From: a virus
Direction: 5' to 3' (one strand)
Length of the DNA stretch: 64,000 bases
IMG/VR virus record: IMGVR_UViG_3300035698_006513
Shown piece after piece: positions 5,170 to 29,780 of the stretch. The notes under the pieces were generated by a model. It searched no databases. It saw nothing but the letters and a program-made list of their open reading frames with translations, and was not told the DNA's origin. Position 1 is the first letter of the stretch. Every line of letters starts with the position of its first letter. The position numbers were made by a program, and so were the translations under genes.

Positions 5170-5727
5170 TTAGAAGCCTAGTACAAGATTAGGTATTCCT
5201 ATACAAGGGACACAATGTACGCCTTGAGTAGTGACTTCAGGCTGTTTATGACATATACACAATTCACCTTCGTCTAGAATCCCCCCAGTATCTCCATTTA
5301 TAACGCGGAACACCTCACCAACCTCAACATCCATAAAGGATTTTGGTGCTTTAAATGCACCTGCTGTCCACACTTGTACTTTTTTGAAGTTCCTAATCGT
5401 ACTTTCAAGTTTCTGGGGCTTGCGTACTTCTTCTCCTTCTTGTACTACGCGGACAAAGTTAGTATGGGCTCCTACTTCCCTGTACTCAAGGAGGATAGAT
5501 CTGTCGCTACGCTCTTTTGTGTTTAACTCTTCCAATACATCTGCGGTAATTGTCTCGTACTCCACCCCTGTAGGGATAGCAGCGCGGGACATGTTAACTG
5601 CGGATACGTAGAGTCTCGTACCATCTCGCCATAAACTCTCTCCTGTGCACACTTCAACAAAGAATTCCATAAAACTGCTCCTACCATATTTAGGTCCGTC
5701 TAAGGGTAATCCATCAGCAGACATCAT
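5170..5727 (-). CDS. hypothetical protein
   Basis: 185-aa ORF with ATGA coupling. Confidence 0.65.
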   Translation of the reverse strand: MMSADGLPLDGPKYGRSSFMEFFVEVCTGESLWRDGTRLYVSAVNMSRAAIPTGVEYETITADVLEELNTKERSDRSILLEYREVGAHTNFVRVVQEGEEVRKPQKLESTIRNFKKVQVWTAGAFKAPKSFMDVEVGEVFRVINGDTGGILDEGELCICHKQPEVTTQGVHCVPCIGIPNLVLGF

Positions 5728-7267: not shown

Positions 7268-7577
7268 TAGATTTAGCTCCTTATTGAGGACACTAATATA
7301 AATGTTGTGCAAAGGGTGAGTTGAGGACTGCTTCTTTCCTCACCACGGCAAGTATCCCAGTGCGATTCTGAGTCTGGTCCGCCGCACAACACTATACGGG
7401 AGTGCAAATCCCGTCAACAGCCCAAACCTAGAGGGAATAAGGGCTGGGTTTTTAGTAAGACAATCCCAAGTTTTGACTACTGACACAGCAAAAACTTTAG
7501 TTTATAGGGGGATAATCCCACAAACATAGGAGTGCCCAGTTTCATGTACGAAGCTGATTAGGGGGATGACTCGTACA

Positions 7578-7657
7578 TGGTGGATACGACAGGAATTGAA
7601 CCTGTGACCGACTATGACCAACTGACCATAGCTGCTCACCAATTGAGCTACGTGCCC
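7578..7657 (-). tRNA. tRNA-like gene with expanded anticodon arm (G3:U70, encoded CCA)
   Basis: GGGCACG-TA-GCTC AATTGGT GAGC-A-GCTATG GTCAGTTGGT CATAGT-CGGTC-ACAGG TTCAATT CCTGT-CGTATCC-A-CCA. Confidence 0.7.
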
Positions 7658-7959: not shown

Positions 7960-7969
7960 ATATAAAAAG

Positions 7970-8043
7970 TACCTAGGGTGGGAATCGAACCCACACTTTT
8001 AGGATTTTAAATCCTATACGTCTACCGCTTGCGTGACCTAGGT
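7970..8043 (-). tRNA. tRNA-Leu(UAA) with short variable loop
   Basis: ACCTAGG/CCTAGGT acceptor, Leu-type D region GCGGTAGACG, TAGGA TTTAAAA TCCTA anticodon arm, GTGGG TTCGATT CCCAC T-arm, A73. Confidence 0.85.
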
Positions 8044-8459: not shown

Positions 8460-8990
8460 TTATTTTGTTCTGAACAGGCTACCCAGTAAGGTCCATTCGT
8501 ACGAGGATATGTTCCCCGAATGGATAGGTACCGCATCAACCGATTTCTTCACAGTAATCGTAATGTTATCGCTAGTAACCCTGACTACACACCAATGGCA
8601 CTCTTGCTCCAAACCTTCCGGAGTGAATTGCAGTAGCATGTCATGTGGGCGAGACGCGTTGTCTGAGTCATCACAGTCTATAAGAGACAGTCGTCTATAC
8701 TGATCCTTATCCACTTCTACCAGCGCATATGGCTGATGCTCACCATCATGAACCAGATCACTAGGCTCATCACCGCTGGTAGTAGCGTCCTCTATAATGT
8801 AGGAGGGTATACTATCAAAACGTGCGTTGGCTACGTCCCTCCTTACCTCTTGAGCCACCTGTAGCCACATTCGTTTACTTATGCGTATCCCAATCTTCAC
8901 ATCGATATTGTCGTAATCCTCTCGCAGTGGAGCTACTAATACAAAGTACGGTTCGTTGTCTGTGTCTCTGGGTAGTGTGACTTTTCTCAT
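8460..8990 (-). CDS. hypothetical protein (possible member of the shared-termini family)
   Basis: 176-aa ORF; N-terminal FVLVAPL motif, but no clear C-terminal tail motif. Confidence 0.65.
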   Translation of the reverse strand: MRKVTLPRDTDNEPYFVLVAPLREDYDNIDVKIGIRISKRMWLQVAQEVRRDVANARFDSIPSYIIEDATTSGDEPSDLVHDGEHQPYALVEVDKDQYRRLSLIDCDDSDNASRPHDMLLQFTPEGLEQECHWCVVRVTSDNITITVKKSVDAVPIHSGNISSYEWTLLGSLFRTK

Positions 8991-9340
8991 TATGATGATT
9001 CCTTATTGAGGTTCTCTGTTTTGAGTGCACGATCAAACTTACCATTAAGGAAGGTGATGACTTTTCCTCGCTCACCTTGACGCTTAACCCACTCACACAT
9101 AGGTACGAACATCTCTTTACAGATGATCCAGTACTTCTTGCCTAATGCTTCCTTAGCGTTTTCTTCTGGTACAACTTCAGACAATGCACGACTCAGCCAC
9201 CCAAGTTCTGTATGAGAGACTACTCCATTGAAAAAGGTTCTCACCAATTCGCGCGAGCTGCGCATAGGTGTATCGCCATTATTGTAGGTATCTTCTGGGA
9301 GTACCGTGTCTGGTCCCAAACCAAAAATTAGTGTACTCAT
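8990..9340 (-). CDS. hypothetical protein
   Basis: ATG 9340 follows AGGAG; TAATG coupling with the downstream gene. Confidence 0.65.
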   Translation of the reverse strand: MSTLIFGLGPDTVLPEDTYNNGDTPMRSSRELVRTFFNGVVSHTELGWLSRALSEVVPEENAKEALGKKYWIICKEMFVPMCEWVKRQGERGKVITFLNGKFDRALKTENLNKESS

Positions 9341-9409
9341 AGTATCTCCTAACAAGTTGAAATATAAGGCTTCTCCTACAGACGCCTCTTACTCACTTAT
9401 TACGTATTC

Positions 9410-9829
9410 CTACAGTAGTATACTCATAGGTAATGAAGGTGGTGCGTATGTAGGAGAAAAAGTACTCTCTCCGAAAGTTAGGATGCACTCCACCGAATAA
9501 TAACGACTTGCAGTCGCAGCGCCGTGCCATGCAATGTACGGGATACCACGGTGCAATATTACTCTCCTCGATAAATATTTGTTAGGTAGCACCGTGGTAC
9601 TCCACCTATCTGATGAATCCTTTATTACTATAGTGAGAGTGTCTACTTGCATATGTGGGTAGATACAGACCCTGTCAACCGTAGGAAACATGGATATTTC
9701 AGGTCTAGCCGTATCTATATCGCTCTTTATACACCGCCAGGTGTGTATATCTAGTCCTACTCCTATAGTACCTTTACCTGTCGCAGGAACGAGTATTACG
9801 TGCTCCCCGTTTCTAGGCATAACATTCAT
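9410..9829 (-). CDS. shared-termini family protein
   Basis: Start 9829 by ATGA overlap; VILVPA... and C-terminal PSLPMSILL. Confidence 0.6.
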   Translation of the reverse strand: MNVMPRNGEHVILVPATGKGTIGVGLDIHTWRCIKSDIDTARPEISMFPTVDRVCIYPHMQVDTLTIVIKDSSDRWSTTVLPNKYLSRRVILHRGIPYIAWHGAATASRYYSVECILTFGESTFSPTYAPPSLPMSILL

Positions 9830-10317
9830 AGTAACCTCGTTGCTGGCAGTTGAATACGGGATGGTTCTTCTCGTGTCTGCATATATTCGTTCCATATAAG
9901 TTGCATATCGCCTATATCTATCCTCTTCGATATATGACCCCCGCACGAAATACTCCACTGGTTGCGCTGAAAGCATATTTGTTTAGGCGCTCTGTGCTGA
10001 GATAGACTTCTTATCTTAGATATGTCTTTCATCTTGTATAATGTGTTAGTACATAAGCCGTAGAAACCTAGATTACCGCTAATATGAAACGCGGAGTTGA
10101 AGTCTAAATCATAATGACCGTAGTATCCCGCTTCCATGCCCTCTGTAATAATGGTCATTATGGTATCCCACACGAAGGGAAGGAACTTAATAACGAACAC
10201 AGGGTCATGTGACAGACCCTGTGTTAGTACAACCAAGTCATTTCTCTTTGGGAGTGTCCATACTTCTTTTATGGACTTCGTCAGACTGTGCCTATATTCA
10301 GGGTACTCTCGATTCAT
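9826..10317 (-). CDS. shared-termini family protein
   Basis: C-terminal IQLPATRLL. Confidence 0.6.
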   Translation of the reverse strand: MNREYPEYRHSLTKSIKEVWTLPKRNDLVVLTQGLSHDPVFVIKFLPFVWDTIMTIITEGMEAGYYGHYDLDFNSAFHISGNLGFYGLCTNTLYKMKDISKIRSLSQHRAPKQICFQRNQWSISCGGHISKRIDIGDMQLIWNEYMQTREEPSRIQLPATRLL

Positions 10318-11183
10318 ATGAGACCTCCTATATTACGAGGTAATTTAACCTCGCCTAAGTCTTCCGCTTCTTTGTCATCTTCGGGACCATCTTCCCCACC
10401 GTATATAGTTATCCTTCCAGCGTTCTCCATAGCGGATAGTTGGTTGAGTCTACCCATATTTATATGGGCCATAGTTCTCCACAGAGATCCGAGCTCATCT
10501 GCGGTAGCTCGGATCTCTCCACTTGCAGCGTCTAGGCTAGGTACAACTGCTACATTTTCTTCTACATAGCTACAAAAAGAGTCGAAAATAGAACTATTGC
10601 TAAGCTCACCTATGACCGGTGTGGGTGGCGTAAGCCGTGCTGGTCCGCGATGTAGAAACTCCCCCGGTACCTGCATAGCTGCCATGATTGCGTCCGAAGT
10701 GTAAATGTCGTTATCGGGACCTGACGCCCTAACATTAGATAGATCTACAGTGGCACCGATATGCGGTGCATTTACCCGCTCAAAGTCTACTACTCCACGC
10801 GAAGGTACTGTAAGGAATGTCTCATAGCTGTGTGGTGTGGTGGAGTATAACTCGCCCCCAACTCGCACCTCCCACACCAAGTACCGTGTATGAAACACAC
10901 AGTGCAATTTCTCCAGTACATATGATACGCGAGGCGCTCCCGGATTTCTGGTAACTACACTAACCGGAACATCTAAAGTACTGCAGTCATCCTCAATCCT
11001 CACTGTTCCAAGATCACTATGTTCTGCAGATAGCGTGGATAGAAACGTTTCTATTATGTTGAAGCTATTAAATTGTACATCAGATATTCTTACACGTAGA
11101 CTGAAATCCGCAACACTCCCATCCTCAGTACGTACAGGCATCAATATGCTTCTACATAGCCCTGACACTCTAAATACACTCAT
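10314..11183 (-). CDS. shared-termini family protein
   Basis: SILMPV... and C-terminal VKLPRNIGGLI; AAGGAG RBS. Confidence 0.65.
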   Translation of the reverse strand: MSVFRVSGLCRSILMPVRTEDGSVADFSLRVRISDVQFNSFNIIETFLSTLSAEHSDLGTVRIEDDCSTLDVPVSVVTRNPGAPRVSYVLEKLHCVFHTRYLVWEVRVGGELYSTTPHSYETFLTVPSRGVVDFERVNAPHIGATVDLSNVRASGPDNDIYTSDAIMAAMQVPGEFLHRGPARLTPPTPVIGELSNSSIFDSFCSYVEENVAVVPSLDAASGEIRATADELGSLWRTMAHINMGRLNQLSAMENAGRITIYGGEDGPEDDKEAEDLGEVKLPRNIGGLI

Positions 11184-11281
11184 GCCATCTCCTTACTTTT
11201 ATGTAAAACACAAACATCTCGAAAAGAACATTGATCTAAATGTTTGTTATCTACCTCTTCTGCCCATTTCACCGTACGTAA

Positions 11282-11836
11282 TTATAGTGTTACGTGAGGA
11301 ATGTGTAATTGGTGTGGTACTTGCTCCATAAGGCAAGACATCTCAGGTAATGCCAGGACAACACTGCGAGAATGTCTCGCAGTGTTTACTACACATCCGT
11401 GTAGCAGAACTGACCACCAAAGTTCTCCCTCTTTTCCGAAATGCAGGTAAGCACTTGTGTGATTCACTACAGTTCTAACGCGAATACTTGCCCATTCAAA
11501 TGCACTAGACGATGCGCTACTACCCGCCTCGCCACATAGGTACTCAAGAGATGTACCAGAGTACATATCCAGTATCATATTATGTTCAACGCTACCGAAC
11601 TTAACCACAAAACCTTGTTTGTTTACATTATACGCGTGTGTCAGGCTCGTAAACGGTATATTCTGATGATGAGATTTACTCTCTTTACTCATACGTGCAG
11701 CAGCATCACTCATTTCAACTAAATACATGATCTTGTCGAGTGTCAACTTTACGTACACAGCGTATTCCACTCTATTACCCCGTCTTTGTGGCCCATCACT
11801 TTCTGCTCTCAAACCCAACCTGATATACTTAGCCAT
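11282..11836 (-). CDS. shared-termini family protein
   Basis: C-terminal LHIPHVTL; AAGGAG RBS. Confidence 0.65.
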   Translation of the reverse strand: MAKYIRLGLRAESDGPQRRGNRVEYAVYVKLTLDKIMYLVEMSDAAARMSKESKSHHQNIPFTSLTHAYNVNKQGFVVKFGSVEHNMILDMYSGTSLEYLCGEAGSSASSSAFEWASIRVRTVVNHTSAYLHFGKEGELWWSVLLHGCVVNTARHSRSVVLALPEMSCLMEQVPHQLHIPHVTL

Positions 11837-11901
11837 ATCATCTCCTTGCGAAACACCTATCCTAGTGTTTTTGTTAATCTATAGCACAAAGCGAAACTTC
11901 T

Positions 11902-12420
11902 CTAAACTACCACAATGGGAATATGAGGCTCTTGGAGTATCTCCTGTACCTCTTGCTCTATGTGCTCTACTAATTTTAGTAGAAAATCTAGAGCCGTCCT
12001 CGTAAGTCCCGCGGATACACCTTTATCTATAGAGACGCGTAAACTATTTTCTAAGGAACGTACGCGTAATATAGGAATGACGATATCACCCCTCTTAGGG
12101 TCGTACTCAGTATAAGCGGCGTAAGAAGAGTTGTACTTTATCTCTAATGTTCCCGATCTATCTATAGCTACCACCGTTCGTAACGGAGTATTGTTAAATA
12201 GACCAGGGCAGAATACCCCGTCTGAGTGGCAATTACGCATCCTGCCTTGCATTACAAGATCCACAAACATCTCCGCGCGCCTCATATCACTGCCCGAACC
12301 GCGCATGAAGTTATAAGATGCGTCCATGATACTTAGTAGACCACGTACCCCATCCGCAGTAAGGTCTAATATCAGTGTACGCTGTCCTCTAGTAGGTATA
12401 CATACTCTCACGGTGTTCAT
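11902..12420 (-). CDS. shared-termini family protein
   Basis: VRVCIPTRGQRTLILDLTA... and C-terminal PHIPIVVV. Confidence 0.65.
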   Translation of the reverse strand: MNTVRVCIPTRGQRTLILDLTADGVRGLLSIMDASYNFMRGSGSDMRRAEMFVDLVMQGRMRNCHSDGVFCPGLFNNTPLRTVVAIDRSGTLEIKYNSSYAAYTEYDPKRGDIVIPILRVRSLENSLRVSIDKGVSAGLTRTALDFLLKLVEHIEQEVQEILQEPHIPIVVV

Positions 12421-12426
12421 AATAAC

Positions 12427-12954
12427 TCATGGCCTCACTAACGGTAATTGTACTGTGGGTACAATATTATCTCGTTCAAGTCTCAGGCAAGACAGGACTA
12501 TAGCTATCTCTTCTGGAAATATCTGCTCCGATTTTCCTAAACCATCCACCTCCCAGTGCACACACTCACTAGAGAACACTATAGATGAGTTAGTATCTTC
12601 GTACTCCTCTACACCATCACACACATTACCCTGCGTCACTCCAACTACATCGCCATTGGTACCTGTATCCACACCTACGGATATAGAGTACAATGACCTA
12701 TTTTGCATATACCCAGGCAGGTATATATAAGGAGCACGTCTAATTATCACTCCGCTATTTTCGTACTTTGTTGCGTACAGACGCAACTGACGTAATGCGT
12801 AGTTATAATATATATCTATCATATTCGTTATCATGTGCGTCCACATAGTCAGCTGTGGCTTATCTACCCTGTGCAATAGAGTGTGCTCTGTGCCTATAGG
12901 AACTGCCATCATCATTGTAGGAAAGTTATCACTATCTTGTGGCAAATCAGTCAT
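12427..12954 (-). CDS. shared-termini family protein
   Basis: MMMAVPIG... and C-terminal VQLPLVRP. Confidence 0.65.
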   Translation of the reverse strand: MTDLPQDSDNFPTMMMAVPIGTEHTLLHRVDKPQLTMWTHMITNMIDIYYNYALRQLRLYATKYENSGVIIRRAPYIYLPGYMQNRSLYSISVGVDTGTNGDVVGVTQGNVCDGVEEYEDTNSSIVFSSECVHWEVDGLGKSEQIFPEEIAIVLSCLRLERDNIVPTVQLPLVRP

Positions 12955-13585
12955 ACTTATAATCCTCTACACCCTGCAGTACAGCAAACCTGTGTATACG
13001 AATCCACTGTTCGTCTAGTCTTGCGTCTGATGCGTCCAGATTATATGGACCAGTAAACGCACTCTCTACGAAATCTCGTAAAAACTCCCCTCCTACGATA
13101 GGCTGAGGTGTGTTTGTGTGCTTCAACATCAGATTTATTGTGGATGACGCTGTATTATCTGCGTGCGGATATGAGTAATCTAGGTCTACGCGTTTCATAC
13201 CCATACCTGCGTACCACTTTGCCTGTCTGTCCTTTGCCTCCAATACAATCCAATCAAATTGCGGATGGTTTGCGTACGAGTTTACTACATACGAAAACAC
13301 CTCTGACCCATATCCACGTCCTTGTACGGTTGTGCACATAGACAGGTATGACAGCAGTACGTATTTGTGTTTGATGTTCTCGTGCACTACGTAAAAACCT
13401 ATTATACCCGTCTTCATTCGCACAATATACACTTTATACACTTTCTTGCGGACAGATTCTGTCATACTGCGGATAGATTCACGTTCCCGTGCAGGAAAGA
13501 CGTCTCCGTACATAGAAATAAACGTTGACCATGTGAATCCGTACGCTTTATGTAGCTGTTTTATCGTTAAACGTCCCATACTCAT
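12947..13585 (-). CDS. GNAT-family acetyltransferase
   Basis: Acetyl-CoA motif A YLSMCTTVQGRGYGS and motif B KWYAGMGM. Confidence 0.75.
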   Translation of the reverse strand: MSMGRLTIKQLHKAYGFTWSTFISMYGDVFPARERESIRSMTESVRKKVYKVYIVRMKTGIIGFYVVHENIKHKYVLLSYLSMCTTVQGRGYGSEVFSYVVNSYANHPQFDWIVLEAKDRQAKWYAGMGMKRVDLDYSYPHADNTASSTINLMLKHTNTPQPIVGGEFLRDFVESAFTGPYNLDASDARLDEQWIRIHRFAVLQGVEDYKYD

Positions 13586-13676
13586 CCCCTATTGGTTATA
13601 GTTGTACGACATCTTGTACCTGTTACGTCCCGCAATATTATTCTCTATTGCTTATAATTAAGGTAGCGGATATTAT

Positions 13677-16600
13677 ATGGGTAACTCAGTTCGCTACCCC
13701 AAAACTACGTTAACGGAGAAAGATATGCCTACATACCCAATTTCATGGCCCGAGGAACTCACTCACCACATAGCTACGCATTGGTTTAATGAGGAATTTT
13801 CTATCCTAAGAGAGAGTCTGAGGGGAGCATTTCTTTCTGTTGAGGGTAAAATCGCAGGTATGCCTATTAAAGGCACAGTAGATGTAGCAACAGTATCTGT
13901 ATTAACTGATACACCTGTTTACGACAATACTGCAGGTACGCTGACTGCTGCAGGAACAGCCACAATAACACCCATAGACGGAATCACACTCGTTGTAGGA
14001 AGCCGCATACTGGTTAAAGATCAGGTAGACGCAAAACACAACGGATTATACGTAGTTTCTGTTCTGGGGGATGGCGCTACTGTAGGTTATGTACTCACTC
14101 GCTCTGTAGACGCAGATGAGTCCGTAGAACTGACAAACAATATGATTGTTGGTGTTAGAGTAGGGACTATCAACGATGACAAGAGATTCCAACTCACAAC
14201 CGACGACGCTCCTATAGTGATAGGGACTACCGACTTGGTATTTGAAGAGTATACCGGCGGCGGGACTATGTGGGTAGACATAGGATCTGATACTGCAGCG
14301 GTCACAGGGTCCGGGTATCTAATATCTGCTGCTAGTAATCCCGTAGACCTGACTTTACCCTTGGCACCTAATGTCGGTGACCAAGTAAAGGTCAAAGTTT
14401 ACGACGTTACGAATCCTGTAAACGTATTAAGGAACTTCGCGAACATACAGGGAGCAGCCAGTGACTACCCTGTAACAAATCTATCTGGATTCTCACTTGT
14501 CTACGCAGGCGCAACAGAAGGATGGACAATAACAGACAATATTATTGTACCTCCGATACTAACTGCAGACCAGATAGCGTCATTCCCTGTAGGGGCTAGT
14601 GCTATCAATCCATTAGCACTTGCGTCAGACGCACGATTCCCTACTACGGATGAAAAAGCGTCATTTCCTGCAACAGCCAGTGCAGCATTACCTTTGGCAC
14701 TGGAGTCTGATACGCGTTTCCCCACTGCTAACGAGAAAGCATCATTCCCTGCTGGAGCAACAGCAATAAATCCTCTGGCGCTACTATCAGACATTGAGGG
14801 GTTAGAGTGGACGGTCATATCTGCAGATACGCTCGCTGTCAATAAAATCGGGTACATGATAGACGGATCTACTTCTACCGTAGACCTAACTCTCCCACTA
14901 GGACCTTCTGTGGGAGACATTGTTGGTGTCGCCGCTTTCAATGTAACTAACACAGTTCGGGTTATGCGAAACGGCAGCAACATCAAGAGTATAGCAGACG
15001 ATATAGAGTTGGATGTGGAATCTGGGTTTACCTTGGCCTACACTGGAGCTACTGCAGGTTGGATTTTAGTTACTGAGATTTCGGGTGGTGAAACAATAGC
15101 TACGGTATTTGACGGTATATACTGCGTTAAAGGCACAGTCACCACTAAGCATGACACGATTGCCGCCGCCTTAGTCGTCGCTGGTGGGTCCGGTCTCGTG
15201 TTAGTAGGACCGGGGTCCTACGCAGAATCTATTACTATAGATGGAGATGAGACTGTTAAGTCGTTAGGTGGCGCTAACGTAACTTCAATTACAGGCGCTG
15301 CTGCTACTGGAGCTCGGGTAACATTTGCGGGGACTAATTCCAAGATAAATGGTTTTAGTATACTTCAACCCACAGATGCTACTCCTGCTATTCTTCATAA
15401 TCATGCAGGTGTTAGTACCGCTAAAGACTGCTTCCTTGCAGGATCCGGGGCAAGCGGTAAAGGTGTATCCTTAACCGGTGCAGGGACTATGATTGGTTCT
15501 GGCATCACTTACGTTTCTGGTACATGCGATACAATATTTGAAGTAGACGGTGTCGGACACATGACAATCAACAACTTCTCTGTCATAGGGGCAACTGCTG
15601 CTGCAGCATTTAGTGCTAGTGGTGGAGGTAAACTATCAGCCCAGACAGGAAGTATTTCCTCTTCTACACTTACTGATGGATTCTTAGTTGCAGATGGGGA
15701 TGTTACTATTGGCGAAGTCAATTTCCTAGACACAGGAACAACTGTCAATGGTATTCACGCTACACACGCAGATTCACATATTGACGCTCACGGTATCAAT
15801 ATGGAGACAAATGTAGATAACCACATTTTAGTAGACCCTGCAATCATTCCTACAGCAGTTCATGTTTCGTCTGCGGATCTTATACGAGATAGAATTAGTT
15901 ACGATGCAGCTGCAGCAGTAAGCGTCGCGATCCAATTCTCTGATTCTACAGAAGGAGATGTTGGAACCTGTTTTCATGGTGAAGTAGCTGTGGGTAGACC
16001 TGAAAATGGAAATGAGTTAATCGCAGGTGAGGGCGATTCCTATACCAGAGGTATGCAGGTACTAACGACAGACGGAACGGCTGACGCCACTACAGATGGT
16101 GGAAATCTTACAGACGTTTCCGCTGCCGCAGCTTCAGCTAGTGGGTCTACATTCACGTTCCAAGATGTAACCGCAGGTCATGCCATTATCGTAGGGTCAT
16201 CTCTTTCGGGGGATACTGACGTACTCAAGCACTGGGGACTGAAGACCTCACAAACGACTGCTGCGGTTGAAGTTACTAAACGCTCATTCTTGGTAGAGAA
16301 GTCGACAACAGCTGGATGGACTCCCGTCGGAGTTATGACCACACACTCCAGTAATTTTTATCGGTACGCGAATGAGCTCTTTATTCGCACGAACACCTCC
16401 GAGCACCTACGATATGGTCTGTCTGCTGAGTCGACATGGAATAAGCGGACTATTAACGGCGATAATCTGTACTGGATGCGTATACGCATTCTTACTACGG
16501 TAACTACCGCTCCTGTGTTCGAGCAGTTCAAGTTATCCTCCAACCGTTTTGAAGCAAATGGGGACGGAACCAACACGTATCACGGTAATAGTCGCTACAT

Positions 16601-17171
16601 TACTACCCTCCAAGGAATCGGTAATATATTTGCAGAATCAGGTGGAGTTGTTAATGGTAATATAGCTGTTGGATCAGGCGGTCTACCCACTGGTTGGAAT
16701 CATGAATACCTAAACGCAGAACTGAATGCAGATGGCGATGCCACATATATGCAATTCAACCTACCTCGCGGTATAGACACGTCATTCCCCCTAGAAGTCG
16801 ACCTGACTTACGGATTAGATGTCCAGAGTGCCACACCAGCAAGTCTGATTATGTCCCTTATTCCTGTAGAGGTGGCCGGTGTGATTGAGGCGGACCCAAG
16901 TGGAGGGACGGCACCAATCGCAAGAACTCTAGGCGAAACAGAAACACTCACAGGCAAAGTTGGCTATAGCGACACTCAGTCTATCGATGTTTCAGACTCA
17001 GACAAACTCCAGAAGACCACCTTCACAGGTTTTGACGTTTCCTCTTACTATGAGGGGGATATGTGTTTCGTCCGACTAGAGGGGGATAACATCAATACAT
17101 CTGATATTATTATATTCTCCTTGGGTTTCCGTACGGTGTTCTGGACCAACGGTGAGCATCTAAACCTCTAG
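13677..17171 (+). CDS. tail fibre / receptor-binding protein (1164 aa)
   Basis: N-terminal IDGITL..GSRILVKDQ...NGLYVV fibre domain; two T4 gp34-like repeats (GY.I....VDLTLPL.P.VGD.V); beta-rich middle. Confidence 0.8.
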   Translation: MGNSVRYPKTTLTEKDMPTYPISWPEELTHHIATHWFNEEFSILRESLRGAFLSVEGKIAGMPIKGTVDVATVSVLTDTPVYDNTAGTLTAAGTATITPIDGITLVVGSRILVKDQVDAKHNGLYVVSVLGDGATVGYVLTRSVDADESVELTNNMIVGVRVGTINDDKRFQLTTDDAPIVIGTTDLVFEEYTGGGTMWVDIGSDTAAVTGSGYLISAASNPVDLTLPLAPNVGDQVKVKVYDVTNPVNVLRNFANIQGAASDYPVTNLSGFSLVYAGATEGWTITDNIIVPPILTADQIASFPVGASAINPLALASDARFPTTDEKASFPATASAALPLALESDTRFPTANEKASFPAGATAINPLALLSDIEGLEWTVISADTLAVNKIGYMIDGSTSTVDLTLPLGPSVGDIVGVAAFNVTNTVRVMRNGSNIKSIADDIELDVESGFTLAYTGATAGWILVTEISGGETIATVFDGIYCVKGTVTTKHDTIAAALVVAGGSGLVLVGPGSYAESITIDGDETVKSLGGANVTSITGAAATGARVTFAGTNSKINGFSILQPTDATPAILHNHAGVSTAKDCFLAGSGASGKGVSLTGAGTMIGSGITYVSGTCDTIFEVDGVGHMTINNFSVIGATAAAAFSASGGGKLSAQTGSISSSTLTDGFLVADGDVTIGEVNFLDTGTTVNGIHATHADSHIDAHGINMETNVDNHILVDPAIIPTAVHVSSADLIRDRISYDAAAAVSVAIQFSDSTEGDVGTCFHGEVAVGRPENGNELIAGEGDSYTRGMQVLTTDGTADATTDGGNLTDVSAAAASASGSTFTFQDVTAGHAIIVGSSLSGDTDVLKHWGLKTSQTTAAVEVTKRSFLVEKSTTAGWTPVGVMTTHSSNFYRYANELFIRTNTSEHLRYGLSAESTWNKRTINGDNLYWMRIRILTTVTTAPVFEQFKLSSNRFEANGDGTNTYHGNSRYITTLQGIGNIFAESGGVVNGNIAVGSGGLPTGWNHEYLNAELNADGDATYMQFNLPRGIDTSFPLEVDLTYGLDVQSATPASLIMSLIPVEVAGVIEADPSGGTAPIARTLGETETLTGKVGYSDTQSIDVSDSDKLQKTTFTGFDVSSYYEGDMCFVRLEGDNINTSDIIIFSLGFRTVFWTNGEHLNL
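14578..14795 (+). repeat. three 81-bp (27-aa) tandem repeats inside the fibre gene
   Basis: ASFP....A..PLAL.SD.RFPT..EK units start at 14578, 14659 and 14740. Confidence 0.85.
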
Positions 17172-17180
17172 GAGAATACA

Positions 17181-17600
17181 ATGGTCTTGAAAATAAGCGA
17201 ACTCTACCCTAAGTCTGTACTAGCTGCGAATGCTAGCACGGTGACGAGCAGTTTTAATAGCAATTTATCTGCTGCTGATCCCGTTGTGCAATCAGCACTT
17301 GAAACTCTAGATGATAAACCTATCATCACTTCTGATCAGGCAGCTGCATTTCCAACTGGTGCTGACGCAAGCAATCAGCTTTTAACAAGTGGCAGATATG
17401 AGAACGACCTATCGGCTGTCGTTGATGCTACCAGACTTCAAAGTGCTACCTTTACTGGCTTTGACATTTCTAAATACTATGAAGGAGATATGTGTCTTGT
17501 TCGTGTAGATGGGAATAGCATTGGTTCTGCCGATATTATTATTATGTCACTTGGGTTCCGTGCTGCCCATTGGACACATGGCGAACACCTAAACGCATAG
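17181..17600 (+). CDS. chimeric fibre-associated protein
   Basis: N-terminus paralogous to 17610..18437; C-terminus paralogous to 13677..17171; AGGAG RBS. Confidence 0.75.
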   Translation: MVLKISELYPKSVLAANASTVTSSFNSNLSAADPVVQSALETLDDKPIITSDQAAAFPTGADASNQLLTSGRYENDLSAVVDATRLQSATFTGFDISKYYEGDMCLVRVDGNSIGSADIIIMSLGFRAAHWTHGEHLNA

Positions 17601-17609
17601 GAGATTATT

Positions 17610-18437
17610 ATGGCTCAGAAAATTAGTGAACTTTTCCCAAACTCTGTTCTTGCGGCTAATGCCAACACAGATACTAGTAACTTTGATACCAAACTTTCGG
17701 TAGCAGACACAACGGTACAAGCTGCACTTGAAACTCTTGATGCCCATGTTGGTGTAGCTCTTAAAGGTTTTTACGATGTTACTGGCTCAGCAGGTAGTGA
17801 TCAAGATATAGCTGTTCCTGCTGGCTCAACCTCTTTTAAATTCAGAGGAGTGGCAGCAGGTGGTGGTGGAGGTGGAGTAGGTGCTTTCTACGATAAAGGA
17901 GGCGGTGGAGGCGCTGGAGAGTATGGTGAAGGATATCTGCTGGGTTTGACAGGAGTAACTCATGTTCGTATAAATCTTGGAACAGGTGGAGTAAAAGCTG
18001 CAGCTACTAATCAGCGTGGAGGGACTGGCGGAGATACCGTAATTTCTAAAGTGATAGCAGCTACTCCTACTTTACTGGCAACTTTGAAAGGAGGCACTGG
18101 TGGGGCATCTGGTGATGACTATGGCGTAGCAGGCCCTGGTGGTACCGGTGGTACTGTACCAATTAACTCTTTTCTTGTTGATGGGCCAAATGGTAATGAC
18201 GGACGGAATTCAGGAACGACAGTGAATCATCACTATTACTTAGGAAATGGAGGTAATAGTAAATTAGGTAGTGGTGGGAAATCAGGATCAGATCGAATAG
18301 GAGCGGGGGCAGGTACTGGAGATGTAGCGACTGTTGGTAAATATGGTGGTGGAGGCGCTGGCGGGATATACGATACAGTTGTTTTTGATCCATCTGCTGC
18401 TGGAGATGGCCGAGTTATTCTAGAATTCTTTGGGTAA
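17610..18437 (+). CDS. glycine-rich tail fibre/virion protein
   Basis: AAGGGGGG...GGGGGAG...G.GG...GDGRVILEF glycine-rich domain typical of phage fibres. Confidence 0.75.
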   Translation: MAQKISELFPNSVLAANANTDTSNFDTKLSVADTTVQAALETLDAHVGVALKGFYDVTGSAGSDQDIAVPAGSTSFKFRGVAAGGGGGGVGAFYDKGGGGGAGEYGEGYLLGLTGVTHVRINLGTGGVKAAATNQRGGTGGDTVISKVIAATPTLLATLKGGTGGASGDDYGVAGPGGTGGTVPINSFLVDGPNGNDGRNSGTTVNHHYYLGNGGNSKLGSGGKSGSDRIGAGAGTGDVATVGKYGGGGAGGIYDTVVFDPSAAGDGRVILEFFG

Positions 18438-18593
18438 AATGAGGTGTAATGATGAGTCAGAGTTGATCCTTTCTTTAGTTATCTTCCATCCTCAGTTCAA
18501 GTTTATGTCTCGTATCCAAACTCTACTGTCCGAGCAAACTCTACCATCCAGCACGGTGTCGAATACGTCGCGTAGCAGACACGCGTACCCAAT

Positions 18594-18640
18594 CAGCTAA
18601 AAAGAAGACGATCCCTCCTCCGTACTCGTCTTTTTAGCTG
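18594..18640. terminator. bidirectional hairpin terminator
   Basis: CAGCTAAAAAGAAGACGA...TCGTCTTTTTAGCTG between convergent genes. Confidence 0.55.
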
Positions 18641-18937
18641 TTATACGCGAACCGGAGGCAGACTCACTTCCCCTTGTCTAGGTCCGCATAGGATACGCCA
18701 AGCCTCAAGCAAGCATTCTCCTTTATCCACAAACATATTCCCCGTAATCTCTTGGTATCTCAAGAAAGATAGCCATTTACCTTCCACAGGGAAATACGTA
18801 CAGAAATAATCAGGTCGCACTTTCTGGATAGCCCTGAGTATTCTCTCCTTGCTGTTTACCTCTCTCTGAAGATCTGAGCAACAGGATCCGTTGTAGCATC
18901 GCCTATCCGTGGCGTAGTGTAGTCTCGGTTCTTTCAT
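18641..18937 (-). CDS. hypothetical protein with family C-terminal tail
   Basis: C-terminal VSLPPVRV; GGAG RBS. Confidence 0.6.
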   Translation of the reverse strand: MKEPRLHYATDRRCYNGSCCSDLQREVNSKERILRAIQKVRPDYFCTYFPVEGKWLSFLRYQEITGNMFVDKGECLLEAWRILCGPRQGEVSLPPVRV

Positions 18938-18971
18938 TGTACATCTCCATTCGTTCTACTAGTGAGTATCC

Positions 18972-19124
18972 TTATATAAACACCTGCGGCATTTGAGCCA
19001 CTCTCAACCTAGAATCTTCCTCCTCTACGATTAAGTTGTGAAGGTAACGTATGTCATCCGCACTCAAATTCAGTATCAAAGACACTTCCTCGCGCACAGG
19101 TATGACTAATTTCATTGTGTCCAT
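18972..19124 (-). CDS. minimal shared-termini family protein (50 aa, not in ORF track)
   Basis: MDTMKLVIPVREEVSLILNLSADDIRYLHNLIVEEEDSRLRVAQMPQVFI; fills the intergenic gap. Confidence 0.6.
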   Translation of the reverse strand: MDTMKLVIPVREEVSLILNLSADDIRYLHNLIVEEEDSRLRVAQMPQVFI

Positions 19125-19126
19125 GC

Positions 19127-19645
19127 TTATATCCTTACCTGCGGTACGCGCAATGTACCTATATTCTCCACGTCATCCAGTGACTGCAGCAGTTCGCACA
19201 AAAAGCGTAATACCGACATACCGATAGTATGAGATACTTCACTTCCCTGTCTCCATACCATAAAAGTTCCATGCATCCGTACACGCACATCTCTAATTCC
19301 TGCGTATATAGTATTGTTCTCGTAATATTCTGCCGTACGCTCTGCTGCTATATTGTGTATTACGTAATCAGACTCTGGTAATCCCCGTGATACACTGCGG
19401 ATGTCCGCATGACCAAACATACCCATCACATGTGTGTACGGAGACCACCTATTCAGTCCACAGTAGGTATTAACTTCAGGGGAAGCCTCTACCAATACAC
19501 GCGAAACGCCATTACATGGCTGCGATTTTATTTCAGCCGCATAGCGTATTAAACGCAGCCATGTTTTCAGTGTAGATGCGTTTATGTCCTGTATTATAGA
19601 AAAGCAGTCACTGACGGGTATGATTAGTTTACGTGTTACAGACAT
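19127..19645 (-). CDS. shared-termini family protein
   Basis: RKLIIPVS... and C-terminal LRVPQVRI. Confidence 0.65.
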   Translation of the reverse strand: MSVTRKLIIPVSDCFSIIQDINASTLKTWLRLIRYAAEIKSQPCNGVSRVLVEASPEVNTYCGLNRWSPYTHVMGMFGHADIRSVSRGLPESDYVIHNIAAERTAEYYENNTIYAGIRDVRVRMHGTFMVWRQGSEVSHTIGMSVLRFLCELLQSLDDVENIGTLRVPQVRI

Positions 19646-19917
19646 TATATCACCACCTGTGGTAATTGTACGTCTGCATTACTGTGTTCCGCGTCTAATC
19701 CTGTTAGTATATCTAGCAACAGTACCCATACGCACGCGGGTATACGCCGAGACGCAACGTCTAGACGCATATAACGCAACCTCGTACCCACAACAGCCGC
19801 ACGTGTACACACATGATCCATCTCTGTTAACAGCATCGCCACCAGCTCTGCTGTAAGATTTATTACTAAGGTCTGTACCGTACCAACAGGTATTACCAGA
19901 CGCATAGGTTCAGTCAT
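19645..19917 (-). CDS. shared-termini family protein (short)
   Basis: MRLVIPVGTVQTLVINLTA... and C-terminal VQLPQVVI. Confidence 0.65.
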   Translation of the reverse strand: MTEPMRLVIPVGTVQTLVINLTAELVAMLLTEMDHVCTRAAVVGTRLRYMRLDVASRRIPACVWVLLLDILTGLDAEHSNADVQLPQVVI

Positions 19918-20543
19918 ATTATCACCATCGGTATACTGGGTTTGTGTATTATATCCGGCTCAGACGCAGATGGTATACGTTGGTACAAATAATCCAATTC
20001 ATTCTTACTCATACACATTGTTCTGTGCTTCTCTGGATACCCATTCGCCGTGCTTACTATACCCATACCCAGCATAATACCCGATTGACCCGATTGACTC
20101 GTTAGCGTTACAGATGAAAGACGTCGTACTAGTACACTATCCGCATCAGAGTGTCCGTCTCGGTATGTCTGTAACGTGGGCGCGGTTAACTCTGAGTTCA
20201 GATGCAAATACGTGTAATCTTCCATTGACTGCAGATACGCATCATTTAAATTTATATCCATACGTGGGTCTGTATGCAGTACGCGTGAGTACGATAATGG
20301 TATTTCTGTCATCATATAAGTAGACAGGTCAGTACACCGTACGCTTAATTCCGGCCTAACTAAGTCCCTGCCTCCCAGTGTATCCGCAGCTACTTTAGTA
20401 GCAATCATAAGCTCTTGCCAACTGCTTATTACGCTATGTGTAACAGCCACCAACAAAGACAAATCATCTCGGTCATCCATCGCCATTGCTGCATACAAAA
20501 CCGGCTCTTTGTAATCAAACACATCTTTCTCCTTTATGCGCAC
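19914..20543 (-). CDS. shared-termini family protein
   Basis: C-terminal PSIPMVII; start uncertain. Confidence 0.6.
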   Translation of the reverse strand: MRIKEKDVFDYKEPVLYAAMAMDDRDDLSLLVAVTHSVISSWQELMIATKVAADTLGGRDLVRPELSVRCTDLSTYMMTEIPLSYSRVLHTDPRMDINLNDAYLQSMEDYTYLHLNSELTAPTLQTYRDGHSDADSVLVRRLSSVTLTSQSGQSGIMLGMGIVSTANGYPEKHRTMCMSKNELDYLYQRIPSASEPDIIHKPSIPMVII

Positions 20544-20616
20544 AAACGCAAATCCGCGCGTTTCATCCGCACACTCTACATGAAATGCGTTTATATGACT
20601 TTAGGTACATACGCAT

Positions 20617-21147
20617 CTATCCGCACATAAACGGTGGTATCTGTATCCGCTCTATTGGCTCAGCGCAGTCCTCTTCCTCCATTACATCAAGTAGGTAGTC
20701 TAGATTATCTCGCCACAGTACATACGTGTTCTGTGGTGGGTTAGCGTTATATGAGATTGACCAGACTATTCCATCCTTTGCTTCGTCAGACACATACTTT
20801 ATCTCGTACTTACAAGAAAGAGACTGGTTAAGACTTTTCAACACATACGCGTCTAGTGTAGGTATACCAGGTATATCCTGTGGGTCATTTAAGTCTACCG
20901 TCTTATTGTCAGTAAGATATAGAATACCGGGCGTACCTATACCTGCGAACCTATACTTGGTGCGCTATACATCAGTTATAGAACAGTTAGTACAACTAGA
21001 CCATGCGATTCCATCCGTCAACTCCTCTAGCAAGTCTATAATACGGATACACTCTTTTACAAACGCAGTGTCTATATCTATCAACAGCGACTCCGCAACG
21101 TAAAAGTAATCGTCCAGGTTTAACATTAACTTTCTACGCATAGACAT
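20617..21147 (-). pseudogene. family gene interrupted by one in-frame TAG
   Basis: ORFs 20965..21147 and 20617..20844 share a frame; the only stop between them is TAG at 20965-20967; C-terminal IQIPPFMCG. Confidence 0.6.
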
Positions 21148-21155
21148 CTCCTTCC

Positions 21156-21335
21156 TTATAATAAGTTACCTACATTAGGTAGCTGTACGGCTCCTACCAC
21201 TTCACTTCCAGTCTCCGGAGACTCTTGCATGTTCCGCACTATCATATCGTGTACAGCCATTAACTCATACAGATTTAAACTGTATGATGCATAATCGCTC
21301 AAACCTAACATCGGTAACAATAGGTTATAATCCAC
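21156..21335 (-). CDS. minimal shared-termini family protein (59 aa, not in ORF track)
   Basis: GGAGG RBS and GTG start; MDYNLLLPMLG...AVQLPNVGNLL. Confidence 0.55.
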   Translation of the reverse strand: MDYNLLLPMLGLSDYASYSLNLYELMAVHDMIVRNMQESPETGSEVVGAVQLPNVGNLL

Positions 21336-21349
21336 AGCTCACTACCTCC

Positions 21350-21901
21350 TTATAGCAACAGTATGTTAGGTAAGACGGGAGTCTGTATTGTCTCAGTAGT
21401 CCTTTGCGATGTGGGACCGTACTCTTCAAATCTACATATCGTGCTATATATCAATTCTAGTGTACCCATATACATGTGTATAGATTTGAAGATTGTGCCA
21501 TTGAACAAGGAGCACCAATACAATACGCAATTACCTTCCCACCTTGAACAGGTAATACTCATGCCGTCTAATGCACTTACTGTTACAGGAGGCATTATAT
21601 TGAACATACCAGGCACACTGCGTAGGTGTGCTCCAGCAAGATCATACGTAGAATCACCATCACCAGAAAATATTGAAGCTGTAGGTAGACACATAGAGGA
21701 AATCGAGTACGCATTCAGCGTATTATCAACACAGTAGAGGTCTTTCTGCGTCAAATTATGTGTAGTTTGTGTGTCTATCAGCGACGTGTACGCACCAATC
21801 ATAGATTTTAAGTAGTTCATGTACGAGGAAGAAAGTTTGATACAGATAGTACTTCCGGTTGACCATCTTGTTGGGACAGCAAGATAATATTGCATAGGCA
21901 C
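21350..21901 (-). CDS. shared-termini family protein
   Basis: YYLAVPT... and C-terminal PVLPNILLL. Confidence 0.6.
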   Translation of the reverse strand: MPMQYYLAVPTRWSTGSTICIKLSSSYMNYLKSMIGAYTSLIDTQTTHNLTQKDLYCVDNTLNAYSISSMCLPTASIFSGDGDSTYDLAGAHLRSVPGMFNIMPPVTVSALDGMSITCSRWEGNCVLYWCSLFNGTIFKSIHMYMGTLELIYSTICRFEEYGPTSQRTTETIQTPVLPNILLL

Positions 21902-21903
21902 TC

Positions 21904-22179
21904 CTATATAATAGGTACAGATGGCATCGAAACACTACTATATGGTGCCGACGCATTCATCTTTCTCCGAATACCCATGAGTGTAGATATATATACAATA
22001 CACGTAGTTACATGTACCAGCCTACCTTCTCCAAGGTCTGCTCCATCATCTCCCGCCAGTCCGCTATCTCCTCCATAGTAACTGGTAGTAGAATATTCTT
22101 GTGCATAGGATCTTGCGTACCTAGCAAAACATGTATCTTTTCCATTACTTACTCCTTTATGCAAAAAAATACCCCTCAT
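21904..22179 (-). CDS. hypothetical protein with family C-terminal tail
   Basis: C-terminal VSMPSVPII. Confidence 0.5.
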   Translation of the reverse strand: MRGIFLHKGVSNGKDTCFARYARSYAQEYSTTSYYGGDSGLAGDDGADLGEGRLVHVTTCIVYISTLMGIRRKMNASAPYSSVSMPSVPII

Positions 22180-22243: not shown

Positions 22244-23503
22244 CTAACACTTCTCCACTCCACCACTTTCAATGACACGGAGTATCTTCGACATATCATC
22301 CTCATTGTAGGAGTCGGCCCTGCGTTCTATGATACTAACCGCAAGTACCGCGGCCTCGCTCATATTGTGAAGCCGGTTTTCGTACAGTTCTGCATCTACT
22401 ATCAGTGATTTTATGTCTCTACTTGCAGAGGCAGCCAACTCCTCTACTCGCCCTAACATACCCATATCTGCCAATGCTGCATCGACTGCCTCAATAGGCA
22501 TATTCACGGCGTCATCAAGATCTTTGTCCTCTTCTGCATCGAAGAAGTCTATAATGTCTGCCTCCTTCACATATAGATCCTCGATCGATCTCACCTTCTT
22601 CTGGCTGCGTACGGGGATCTCCGTATTTATAGCAGATCTTAACCATGACTTCAGGAACGGCATTGCGTATCGAAATACGACATCACCTTCACTCTTCGAG
22701 GTGAACTGTATCTGGAGAAGTGGTATGGCATCATTGTAGTCAGGTATCTTGGTAAGAAGAACAGTAGATATTTCTACCCCATCACCTTTATTAGGGGGTG
22801 ACCCTACGAGGAAGTAGTTGACTTCTTTAGAATCGGAGGGTAACGACACGGATCTTTCGATATGTTTGTAGTCTTGTCTACTGTGGGTACAGTAAGACAT
22901 GATTACGTCGCATACTCGCACTTGAGACGCACACAACGAAACTGTATTCCCTCGCGGACAGCGTCCGGGGTCCACTAATGCGCCCAATGCGTCTACATCT
23001 AACTCTGCCCATATAGACTTGTTCTCCCCTTCGATGGGAGCCCACACTTGTATGAACTTGTTCGCTACCTCTTTCTCGTGGTCCAGAATAGTCTGTAACA
23101 AGTACGAGAATGGTACGAACACACTCTCTACTACGACTGCGTTTAGTAGTACGACATACACATATGCACCTAGCTCACCCATCACCAAGAAACTTGACGA
23201 AGGAATCTCTTCTCCTTTATAAGGAGAAATACCATCTCGCCATTTTCCCAGGTCGGCTGACGACATAATGTCCGCAGACACCATGCTATCAAGCATTCTT
23301 CTGAATTTTCTATCTGAGAGCGGTAGTCTCAGAACAGAAGGAACCTTCACACCACTTACCACACAAGACGATAGTGAGAGATTAGCGCAGGCAATCTCTC
23401 CACTCAGCATTCCCTTAGCCAAGGGCAGATGCTCAAAGGGAATCGAGCACTGAATTGATTTATTATCATTCGTAGGTAGCCACACTCTTAGATCTTTACT
23501 CAT
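22244..23503 (-). CDS. hypothetical protein (about 420 aa)
   Basis: ATG 23503 follows GGAG; two internal V-W-x-P-starting units and a helical acidic C-terminus. Confidence 0.65.
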   Translation of the reverse strand: MSKDLRVWLPTNDNKSIQCSIPFEHLPLAKGMLSGEIACANLSLSSCVVSGVKVPSVLRLPLSDRKFRRMLDSMVSADIMSSADLGKWRDGISPYKGEEIPSSSFLVMGELGAYVYVVLLNAVVVESVFVPFSYLLQTILDHEKEVANKFIQVWAPIEGENKSIWAELDVDALGALVDPGRCPRGNTVSLCASQVRVCDVIMSYCTHSRQDYKHIERSVSLPSDSKEVNYFLVGSPPNKGDGVEISTVLLTKIPDYNDAIPLLQIQFTSKSEGDVVFRYAMPFLKSWLRSAINTEIPVRSQKKVRSIEDLYVKEADIIDFFDAEEDKDLDDAVNMPIEAVDAALADMGMLGRVEELAASASRDIKSLIVDAELYENRLHNMSEAAVLAVSIIERRADSYNEDDMSKILRVIESGGVEKC

Positions 23504-24170
23504 AACTTTTTCTCCATACCAAACTGTTTTCTCCATCTAACACTACTCCGCGCTCTGCCTCTATAGCAGTTTCGCGTATGACTTTAACCGGGTGCTTACA
23601 CAACCACAACCTCAGCAGTAATGCTGGGATAATACCTGTGTGCACCTCATCCGCCCCCATCCGTGTACGAAAGTACATTGCTGTCCTCAACAATGCAACT
23701 TGTGGTCTCTTCATCTCATACATGTAATTTGGGATGTCCATCTCTTTGAGACCATTCTCCATTATAGATCTCTTAGATTTCCTCATTATCTTCCTACCTT
23801 CGGTAGACTCATACATATCCAGGAGGCATGTACTTAATTTATCCGAACCCGGTGTAAGATCCTCCAGTAATACACGGCCATTTCCTTTCATGGAGAGCTT
23901 CTTTGCAGTAGCGTTGCATAACCCCAGCGGCACCACGTGGGGACTATCATCCTCAAAGGAGGACTCTATTCCATTAAGCCAATCCATTGCTACATCCGCT
24001 GTAAATGCCACGCACATGCACGATTCCGTTGGAGATCCTATTATCCGCAATAGGACGTGGTACTCATACCACTGGTGCATCACTAGGTTTTCGTACTCAT
24101 CTACGTCAATGTCCTGTCGGGGGCTGCGTAAATACGCGATGAATTCATCGGTATGCACTATTTTACTCAT
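23496..24170 (-). CDS. hypothetical protein
   Basis: 224-aa ORF with GGGAG RBS; first gene of a leftward unit. Confidence 0.7.
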   Translation of the reverse strand: MSKIVHTDEFIAYLRSPRQDIDVDEYENLVMHQWYEYHVLLRIIGSPTESCMCVAFTADVAMDWLNGIESSFEDDSPHVVPLGLCNATAKKLSMKGNGRVLLEDLTPGSDKLSTCLLDMYESTEGRKIMRKSKRSIMENGLKEMDIPNYMYEMKRPQVALLRTAMYFRTRMGADEVHTGIIPALLLRLWLCKHPVKVIRETAIEAERGVVLDGENSLVWRKSYE

Positions 24171-29351: not shown

Positions 29352-29780
29352 TTAAGGGAATACCACCATCATAGGCGGTAGTAAAATTCCTGCACCAGCA
29401 TCACCTACTACACGATATTGGTACTCTAGGTCTCCGTTATATCTACACAGCTCGGCTAAAGATCTCTCCATCACCTCGTGTGTTTGACTTGTAAGCATCG
29501 CCCATCTACTATCATCTGATGATGTAGCAGGATTAGGCGGTCTATCGGCGCTTCTAACTATAAGCGATCTCTCTACCCATAGCTTTGAATCTTTCAGGCC
29601 CCAACCCGTGAGTATCCTTACAATTTTGATAGTTCGTATCTTATGGTAGTAAGACCTCATATAGAGGTGATACCCCATACCTTTTTCTTCCCGTAGTATG
29701 TTTAGTACCTCATCTATAGACACGCCGCTATCCTGCTTACTTCTCGCCCGCATATGATTGTATAGCTCTTCATAAGTCAT
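29352..29780 (-). CDS. protein with ribosomal L7/L12 C-terminal-like domain
   Basis: HKIRTIKIVRILTGWGLKDSKLWVE resembles the bL12 motif KIAVIKAVR..TGLGLKEAKDLVE. Confidence 0.65.
   Translation of the reverse strand: MTYEELYNHMRARSKQDSGVSIDEVLNILREEKGMGYHLYMRSYYHKIRTIKIVRILTGWGLKDSKLWVERSLIVRSADRPPNPATSSDDSRWAMLTSQTHEVMERSLAELCRYNGDLEYQYRVVGDAGAGILLPPMMVVFP

Follow-up and report, generated by a model that had tools for sequence, protein, structure and literature searches.

Why do fifteen small phage proteins with divergent bodies end in the same short peptide, and is it the protein or the underlying DNA that is being kept? The question is raised by the IMG/VR virus record IMGVR_UViG_3300035698_006513, a stretch of 64,000 nucleotides (nt) from a large uncultured phage, which was analysed at its full length and is called the window from here on. 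Two rows of small genes lie head to tail on its minus strand, at 12954-9410 (array 1) and 22179-18641 (array 2). Successive genes overlap or are separated by gaps of at most 98 nt, the exception being 120 nt inside the split member 20617-21147. Across both arrays 15 proteins bear the tail, and each of the tails that an earlier note on this DNA had listed was found at its gene end. Our analysis shows that the tail is a real protein-level motif, with selection acting on the protein and not on the DNA. The arrays most likely represent one orphan, fast-diverging phage family that expanded by repeated local duplication, that is, a lineage-specific paralog expansion. The tail-bearing genes, with lengths in amino acids (aa) and in their order along the minus strand, are as follows.

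12427..12954, minus strand: family member, 175 aa, tail VQLPLVRP, with the N-terminal motif and the P-G and E-Y motifs of the middle
11902..12420, minus strand: family member, 172 aa, tail PHIPIVVV, with the canonical N-terminal motif
11282..11836, minus strand: tail-bearing member, 184 aa, tail LHIPHVTL, without significant homology outside the tail
10314..11183, minus strand: tail-bearing member, 289 aa, tail VKLPRNIGGLI, after an acidic linker of ~38 residues
9826..10317, minus strand: tail-bearing member, 163 aa, tail IQLPATRLL
9410..9829, minus strand: tail-bearing member, 139 aa, tail PSLPMSILL, start revised to the ATG at 9829
21904..22179, minus strand: tail-bearing member, 91 aa, tail VSMPSVPII
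21350..21901, minus strand: family member, 183 aa, tail PVLPNILLL
21156..21335, minus strand: tail-bearing member, 59 aa, tail VQLPNVGNLL
20617..21147, minus strand: split family member, tail IQIPPFMCG, with an in-frame TAG
19914..20543, minus strand: family member, 209 aa, tail PSIPMVII
19645..19917, minus strand: family member, 90 aa, tail VQLPQVVI, modelled with AlphaFold2
19127..19645, minus strand: family member, 172 aa, tail LRVPQVRI, modelled with AlphaFold2
18972..19124, minus strand: smallest member, 50 aa, tail AQMPQVFI, composed of strand-Pro-strand-helix, acidic linker and then the tail
18641..18937, minus strand: tail-bearing member, 98 aa, tail VSLPPVRV, last gene of array 2
18594..18640, minus strand: terminator-like hairpin directly 3' of the last gene of array 2 (-18.5 kcal/mol, z = -3.7)

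The gene at 9410 had been given as 188 aa long. It is 139 aa long when read from the ATG at 9829, which forms an ATGA overlap with the stop of the gene at 9826, and with this start it begins with the N-terminal motif.

Aligned on its invariant proline, the tail reads [VILAP]-[QSH]-[LIMV]-P-x-[VIF]-x-hydrophobic-COOH. The chain ends four residues after this proline in eight genes, five residues after it in five, and six and seven residues after it in one gene each. The tail is preceded by acidic linkers in which P, G and S are frequent. They usually measure 8-10 residues, with outliers of 5, 14, 16 and ~38 residues. For the enrichment analysis, the 17 minus-strand genes from 9410 to 22179 were compared with the 63 other genes of the window. 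A loose pattern, [LIVM]-P-x-hydrophobic within the last 12 aa, was present in 13/17 array genes versus 6/63 other genes (Fisher p = 1.4e-7), and its chance rate inside proteins was ~4% per 12-aa window. A strict pattern matched 12/17 array genes and 4/63 other genes, and among spurious open reading frames it matched 2/110 in the same region and 13/471 elsewhere. When the last 30 aa were shuffled 5000 times, the strict pattern was met 0.77 times on average and five times at most. Furthermore, the last five residues hold on average 3.0 hydrophobic residues in the members versus 2.0 in the other proteins of the phage (p = 9e-4), and 0.27 versus 1.29 charged ones.

Outside the arrays, comparable endings occur at close to the number expected by chance. 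The earlier note had extended the tail to the following protein, and this extension did not hold.

29352..29780, minus strand: L7/L12-C-terminal-domain-like protein ending in ILLPPMMVVFP (PF00542, 21.2 bits, below the cut-off of 25.9)

Its ending lies within chance: ~2.4 matches are expected among the non-array genes, and four to six occur. Profiles do not connect it with the family. The endings of the major head protein at 57099-58223 (Y-V-P-K-V-V-I-F) and of an orphan gene at 5170-5727 on the minus strand (I-G-I-P-N-L-V-L-G-F) also resemble the family tail. Neither of these two has a profile link to the family.

Could the tail be a by-product of nucleotide constraint? Such a constraint might come from ribosome-binding sites, from stop-start overlaps, or from a recombination or regulatory DNA site at the gene boundaries. 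The question of overlapping ribosome-binding site and stop sequences had been set as a test beforehand, and the outcome makes this explanation scarcely credible. It draws on two observations. The next Shine-Dalgarno sequence (AGGTGGTGAT, GTAAGGA, GGTGAT, GAGGT, GGAGGT) coincides with the final two or three tail codons in five to six genes; for example, the odd Gly-Gly codons in the tail of 10314..11183, GGAGGT, are the ribosome-binding site of the next gene. In addition, CCG is slightly in excess at the proline (5 versus 1.8 expected, p = 0.048) in tails whose codon usage is otherwise about that of the window as a whole. Yet synonymous codons are free to vary at every conserved residue. The invariant proline is written as CCT in six, CCG in five, CCA in four and CCC in one case, the aliphatic residue preceding it uses seven different codons, and valine appears as GTG, GTA and GTT. 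The distance from the proline codon to the next start codon is just as variable, from 14 to >35 nt. Only the five to six tails mentioned overlap the ribosome-binding site of the next gene, whereas nine to ten genes have the next start at a distance of 20-98 nt or have none at all. The tail is kept before gaps of 34-98 nt, the widest being the 98 nt that follow 11282..11836, and the motif is rare in the spurious reading frames of the same DNA (2/110, as given above). Finally, 18641 is the last gene of its array and is followed by the terminator hairpin; therefore its tail VSLPPVRV cannot serve a downstream gene.

One feature of codon choice can be added here as an observation. The leucine before the invariant proline is encoded by TTA in 5/9 leucine cases (counted by hand), against a share of 20% for TTA among all leucine codons of the window. 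A phage tRNA-Leu(UAA) gene at 7969-8043 adjoins array 1. The preference for TTA at this position may reflect only the shared ancestry of the copies.

Whether the members are related beyond the tail was addressed with leave-one-out profiles, built from the alignment of the 15 genes without its tail columns and applied to targets that had each been shortened by their last ten residues. Eight of the 15 members (19645, 18972, 19127, 11902, 12427, 21350, 19914 and 20617) were recovered at 8-31 bits, including 12427..12954 at 30.6 bits, 18972..19124 at 25.2 bits and 19914..20543 at 17.0 bits, while the best unrelated protein reached at most 5.4 bits. These eight are therefore real paralogs. For the other seven (9410, 9826, 10314, 11282, 18641, 21156 and 21904), the tail and the position in the arrays are the only links to the family, and from these their common descent appears probable.

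The description of the family as a split scaffold, with fixed ends and variable middles, stands, with some corrections to its parts. The strand-Pro-strand-helix at the N-terminus is statistically real in seven genes, and BLAST linked the N-termini of six genes; a profile of seven N-termini resolves it as strand-Pro-turn-strand-helix, and in the remaining genes it is a resemblance by eye. No obvious similarity had been seen among the middles. This does not apply to the four members of 172-183 aa, which have P-G, E/K-Y and V-x-W motifs in common and share the invariant columns Pro10, Gly75 and Glu-Tyr 106-107; otherwise the middles are indeed variable. An amphipathic helix about ten residues upstream of the tail is seen in alignments and in both structure models, but it did not rise above background in the leave-one-out analysis and is not counted as a family feature. 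An internal duplication, with the N-terminal unit matching the C-terminal one, was also considered and rejected (hhalign probability 0.2%).

The split member provides a view of both conserved ends on one chain. The reading frame 20965-21147 has the N-terminal motif and no tail, and 20617-20844 has the tail and no N-terminal motif. The two halves are in the same frame, and one TAG (20965-20967, codon 61) and 120 nt lie between them. Read through with X at the TAG, the gene yields 176 residues that are collinear with the members of 172-183 aa. The invariant Gly of the P-G motif and the Tyr column align in this product, and the Gly falls in the supposed intergenic stretch. TAG ends 23/80 genes and is thus an ordinary stop in this phage. 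Accordingly, 20617-21147 is a family member that is cut by a nonsense codon, or one that is expressed as two pieces.

As the earlier note had supposed, no described family matches these proteins: searches of curated families, large protein sets, folds and distant relatives all came back empty. No match with E below 0.05 was obtained among the sequence profiles of Pfam, PHROGs, NCBIfam and the PDB. A word-indexed search of 5.8 billion proteins with the 172-aa member at 11902 returned the query itself and nothing else. Among 1.84 billion representatives, the family profile matched only proteins of the window itself and one spurious Ig-repeat protein, and the family is therefore confined to the two arrays within the phage. 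The ESM Atlas yielded only generic phage hypotheticals (0.89-0.91), and the family was not found in the distant relatives of the phage. Member proteins do occur on four or five contigs; clustering at 90% brought together alternative-start forms of two members and not a single real sequence variant, and thus offered no usable microdiversity. In IMG/VR, six matches to a degenerate DNA pattern for V-Q-L-P-Q-V-x-I-stop were all dismissed as chance.

Two members were modelled with AlphaFold2. For the 90-aa member (19645), modelled with the paralog alignment, the mean predicted local distance difference test (pLDDT) score was 69.8. Its elements are strands at 5-10 and 16-21, a helix at 23-43, strands at 49-52 and 57-60, and a helix at 61-74, followed by the tail (75-90), which is predicted as coil at a pLDDT below 50. 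This model, of modest quality, had no significant fold match (Foldseek against the PDB, E at least 3.9; VIA-align, best Z 4.4; BFVD, E at least 1.5). The 172-aa member (19127), with a mean pLDDT of 50.9, shows the same N-terminal beta-beta-alpha unit, an unmodelled middle, a helix at 143-157 and a tail in coil.

What, then, does the tail do? Tentatively, and as a possibility rather than a probability, we favour the view that it is a short peptide for docking on one common partner, a hydrophobic strand in extended form that is held by a flexible tether. Each member is built of an N-terminal strand-Pro-strand-helix, a variable body of 0 to ~200 residues, an acidic linker and the terminal peptide. 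The peptide was inherited by descent, and selection on the protein has preserved it more strictly than all other parts. Every member would plug into the same groove of one partner, of phage or host origin, at which the divergent bodies would act differently. Docking would thus take place in trans and presupposes such a partner; by analogy with other large-phage arrays, an early role or one in host interaction may be expected. The main competitor is that the tail acts in cis, without any hub, and supplies the final beta-strand of a small alpha/beta fold that the members themselves form. It would pair either with the N-terminal hairpin or, as a beta-alpha-beta unit, with the strand preceding the last helix, thereby closing a scaffold that displays the variable middle, and it would be conserved because the genes are paralogs. 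We regard this as somewhat less likely than docking. In its favour, hydrophobic residues alternate around the proline as in a strand, and the split gene puts N-terminal motif, mid motifs and tail on one chain. On the other hand, seven members keep the tail while the N-terminal motif and the helix before the tail are no longer detectable, and the linkers include outliers of 5, 14, 16 and ~38 residues. Docking is favoured because the tail stays fixed in those seven members, whose candidate cis partners have drifted beyond detection, because every chain stops 4-7 residues past the proline, and because AlphaFold2 packs the tail against nothing in either model. The acidic linkers and the scarcity of charge in the last five residues also count in its favour.

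Several points weigh against docking. The two candidate hubs, 22244-23536 and 37549-40314, contain no recognisable peptide-binding domain. The clustering of helix-to-tail linkers at 8-10 residues and the co-occurrence of N-terminal hairpin and tail in eight members both fit a strand that packs on its own fold. In the 172-aa model the tail has a pLDDT of 63-70, which is above the expectation for a free peptide and agrees with a role in cis. Both models are of modest quality and built on 15-16 paralog sequences. There are no orthologues either across which constraint could be compared between phages. A degradation signal would be a different kind of answer: a non-polar C-terminus would mark the whole set for a host or phage protease, and the proteins would be short-lived and act only early in infection. 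Parsell, Silber and Sauer reportedly found in 1990 that non-polar C-terminal pentapeptides destabilise proteins in Escherichia coli, and ssrA-type tags belong here as well. The unusually hydrophobic and nearly uncharged last five residues of the members would fit this picture. However, a generic non-polar degron needs neither an invariant proline, nor a fixed aliphatic residue before it, nor a polar Q, S or H two positions before it. Moreover, there is no protease gene in or beside the arrays, and we consider a degron improbable.

To return to docking, the concept could be carried further, to a plug-in library in which ~15 unrelated-looking bodies present one C-terminal octapeptide to a single receptor groove on a machine of the phage or the host, and by which one hub is re-aimed at many targets or many activities are gathered at one site. 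This extension appears unlikely to us, and the label of an effector library, which had been suggested for the genes, is an analogy and not a result.

How do the arrays compare with known systems? They are a new orphan family of a known kind, the lineage-specific tandem paralog arrays of large phages. With these they share the same-strand, head-to-tail row of small genes and the mutual homology of the members (8/15 without the tail, and a split gene collinear with the larger members). The lack of relatives outside the lineage (among 1.84 billion representatives) and the extreme divergence, with one short conserved terminal motif and no known domain, are also typical. Different are the Pro-centred hydrophobic octapeptide, the lack of any sequence relative in those other arrays, and the small size of the set, whose 15 genes are divided by a tail-fibre cassette.

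A second parallel is offered by the internal proteins of T4-type phages, which carry an N-terminal capsid targeting sequence that is removed by the prohead protease (PMC3012670, PMC9026906). There, too, hypervariable or unrelated phage proteins have only a short terminal peptide in common. The T4 peptide sends all of them to one place, and it is N-terminal, in contrast to the C-terminal peptide of the family. A candidate head-protease motif, L-x-K-x-A-[SA], occurs in none of the family members; in this phage only the head genes at 50-64 kb have it. Its absence from the family argues against the members being packaged head cargo, and this possibility was set aside.

In cellular proteins, hub-binding peptides on disordered linkers are known from the C-terminal peptide of FtsZ (D-I-P-x-F-L) and the tip of the single-stranded DNA-binding protein SSB (D-D-D-I-P-F). 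The architecture is similar: a folded body is followed by a linker, variable and acidic or disordered, and the chain closes with a short conserved hydrophobic peptide around an aliphatic-Pro core. The tails IQIPPFM, LPQVVI and IPMVII fit the form aliphatic-P-x-hydrophobic-hydrophobic. The residue spacing and the distance to the C-terminus are different. The logic is reversed as well: there one host protein meets many partners, whereas here many proteins carry one peptide.

Large eukaryotic DNA viruses have terminal multigene families, such as the MGF families of African swine fever virus and the ankyrin/F-box proteins of poxviruses. In the latter, a conserved C-terminal element recruits one host machine and the variable body selects the targets. 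The virus-specific paralog expansion is the common trait. There is no relation in sequence or fold, the members here are much smaller, and a bacterial host is without F-box/SCF. If the plug-in library were true, which we rate as unlikely, bacterial viruses would have their own equivalent of the shared-adaptor effector families known from eukaryotic viruses.

Other short C-terminal signals were compared with the tail. A sortase LPXTG signal was rejected, as no tail has T-G after L-P-x and only 4-7 residues follow the proline. The sliding-clamp motif (Q-L-[SD]-L-F or Q-L-x-L-x-L) was rejected too. The Gln is present in 6/15 tails, position 3 is the invariant proline, a variable polar residue follows at position 4, and positions 5 and 7 are the hydrophobic ones. 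Nine of the 15 tails fit the class II ligand pattern of PDZ domains (hydrophobic-x-hydrophobic-COOH, hand count), and there was no PDZ domain among the scanned proteins of the window. An ubiquitin-like modifier tail can be discarded, since no member ends in Gly-Gly and the endings are I, V, L, P or C-G. For the beta-grasp fold, the searches with the 90-aa model, itself of modest quality, gave no significant match.

These findings are relevant beyond a single phage. In large phages, rows of orphan paralogs take up a sizeable share of the genome. In the present case the only element kept by selection is an eight-residue terminal peptide, which is clearly no nucleotide artefact and provides a simple experimental handle for 15 proteins at once. 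Fused to a reporter, the peptide should reveal whether there is a partner. A common partner, should one exist, would point to the host or phage machine that this lineage manipulates, and the peptide would then be a portable docking tag. If the peptide is only a strand of the fold, the family would still be a new small scaffold that tolerates inserts of 0 to ~200 residues.

The arrays are flanked and interrupted by other genes, and the window also contains head genes.

12947..13585, minus strand: GNAT-like acetyltransferase, 212 aa, first gene of array 1, with sub-threshold Pfam GNAT matches (PF13673, E = 6.7e-4)
8990-9355 and 8460-8990, minus strand: last two genes of array 1, without tail
23496-24170 (224 aa) and 22244-23536 (430 aa), minus strand: two leading genes of array 2, without tail and without family match
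13677..18437, plus strand: three-gene tail-fibre cassette between the arrays, on the opposite strand
13677-17171, plus strand: fibre protein, 1164 aa, first gene of the cassette
57099-58223, minus strand: major head protein (phrog_2522)

The GNAT-like protein has a C-terminus without the motif, and its gene has an 8-nt overlap with the start of the next one. Two stretches resembling the N-terminal motif in the 430-aa protein were rejected, as they had no BLAST support and formed no internal repeat. The fibre cassette is modular. The last 59 residues of a 139-aa protein (17181-17600) resemble the end of the 1164-aa fibre (64% identity, E = 5e-27), and its first ~45 residues resemble the 275-aa Gly-rich protein at 17610-18437 (49% identity in a 73-column alignment, E = 4e-16).

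The window further encodes a head-protease-like gene, a thymidylate kinase, a methyltransferase and a RecA-like gene. Compared with INPHARED (megablast, tblastn), it showed no resemblance at the DNA level or via the capsid protein. The nearest capsid relatives, from IMG/VR and the metagenomes of the Joint Genome Institute, are only 41-46% identical, and a metagenome scan revealed none closer. Three distant relatives, chosen by their major capsid protein and compared whole, have only structural genes at 40-64 kb in common with the phage. Positions 1-40000 of the window, which include both arrays, contain nothing that is conserved in its nearest relatives, and the frequency of the tail motif in the distant relatives equals the background.

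The tRNA genes in the window number three. The third, tRNA-like gene lies at 7581-7657 on the minus strand and was detected by Rfam (RF00005, 45 bits, E = 6e-8) and missed by ARAGORN. It has 12 nt in place of the 7-nt anticodon loop, and its anticodon is ambiguous. The loop is without CUA, so that suppression of the amber codon in 20617-21147 is not an obvious role for this gene.

Regarding transcription, a scan for sigma-70 promoters found fewer sites than in shuffled sequence, and a 9-mer search of the intergenic regions gave no array-specific signal. The 10-mer TATAAACTAA occurs in three intergenic regions (7500-7525, 31390-31580 and 46547-46697). At 7500-7525 it is part of a terminator-like hairpin, and it may be a phage-specific transcription signal.

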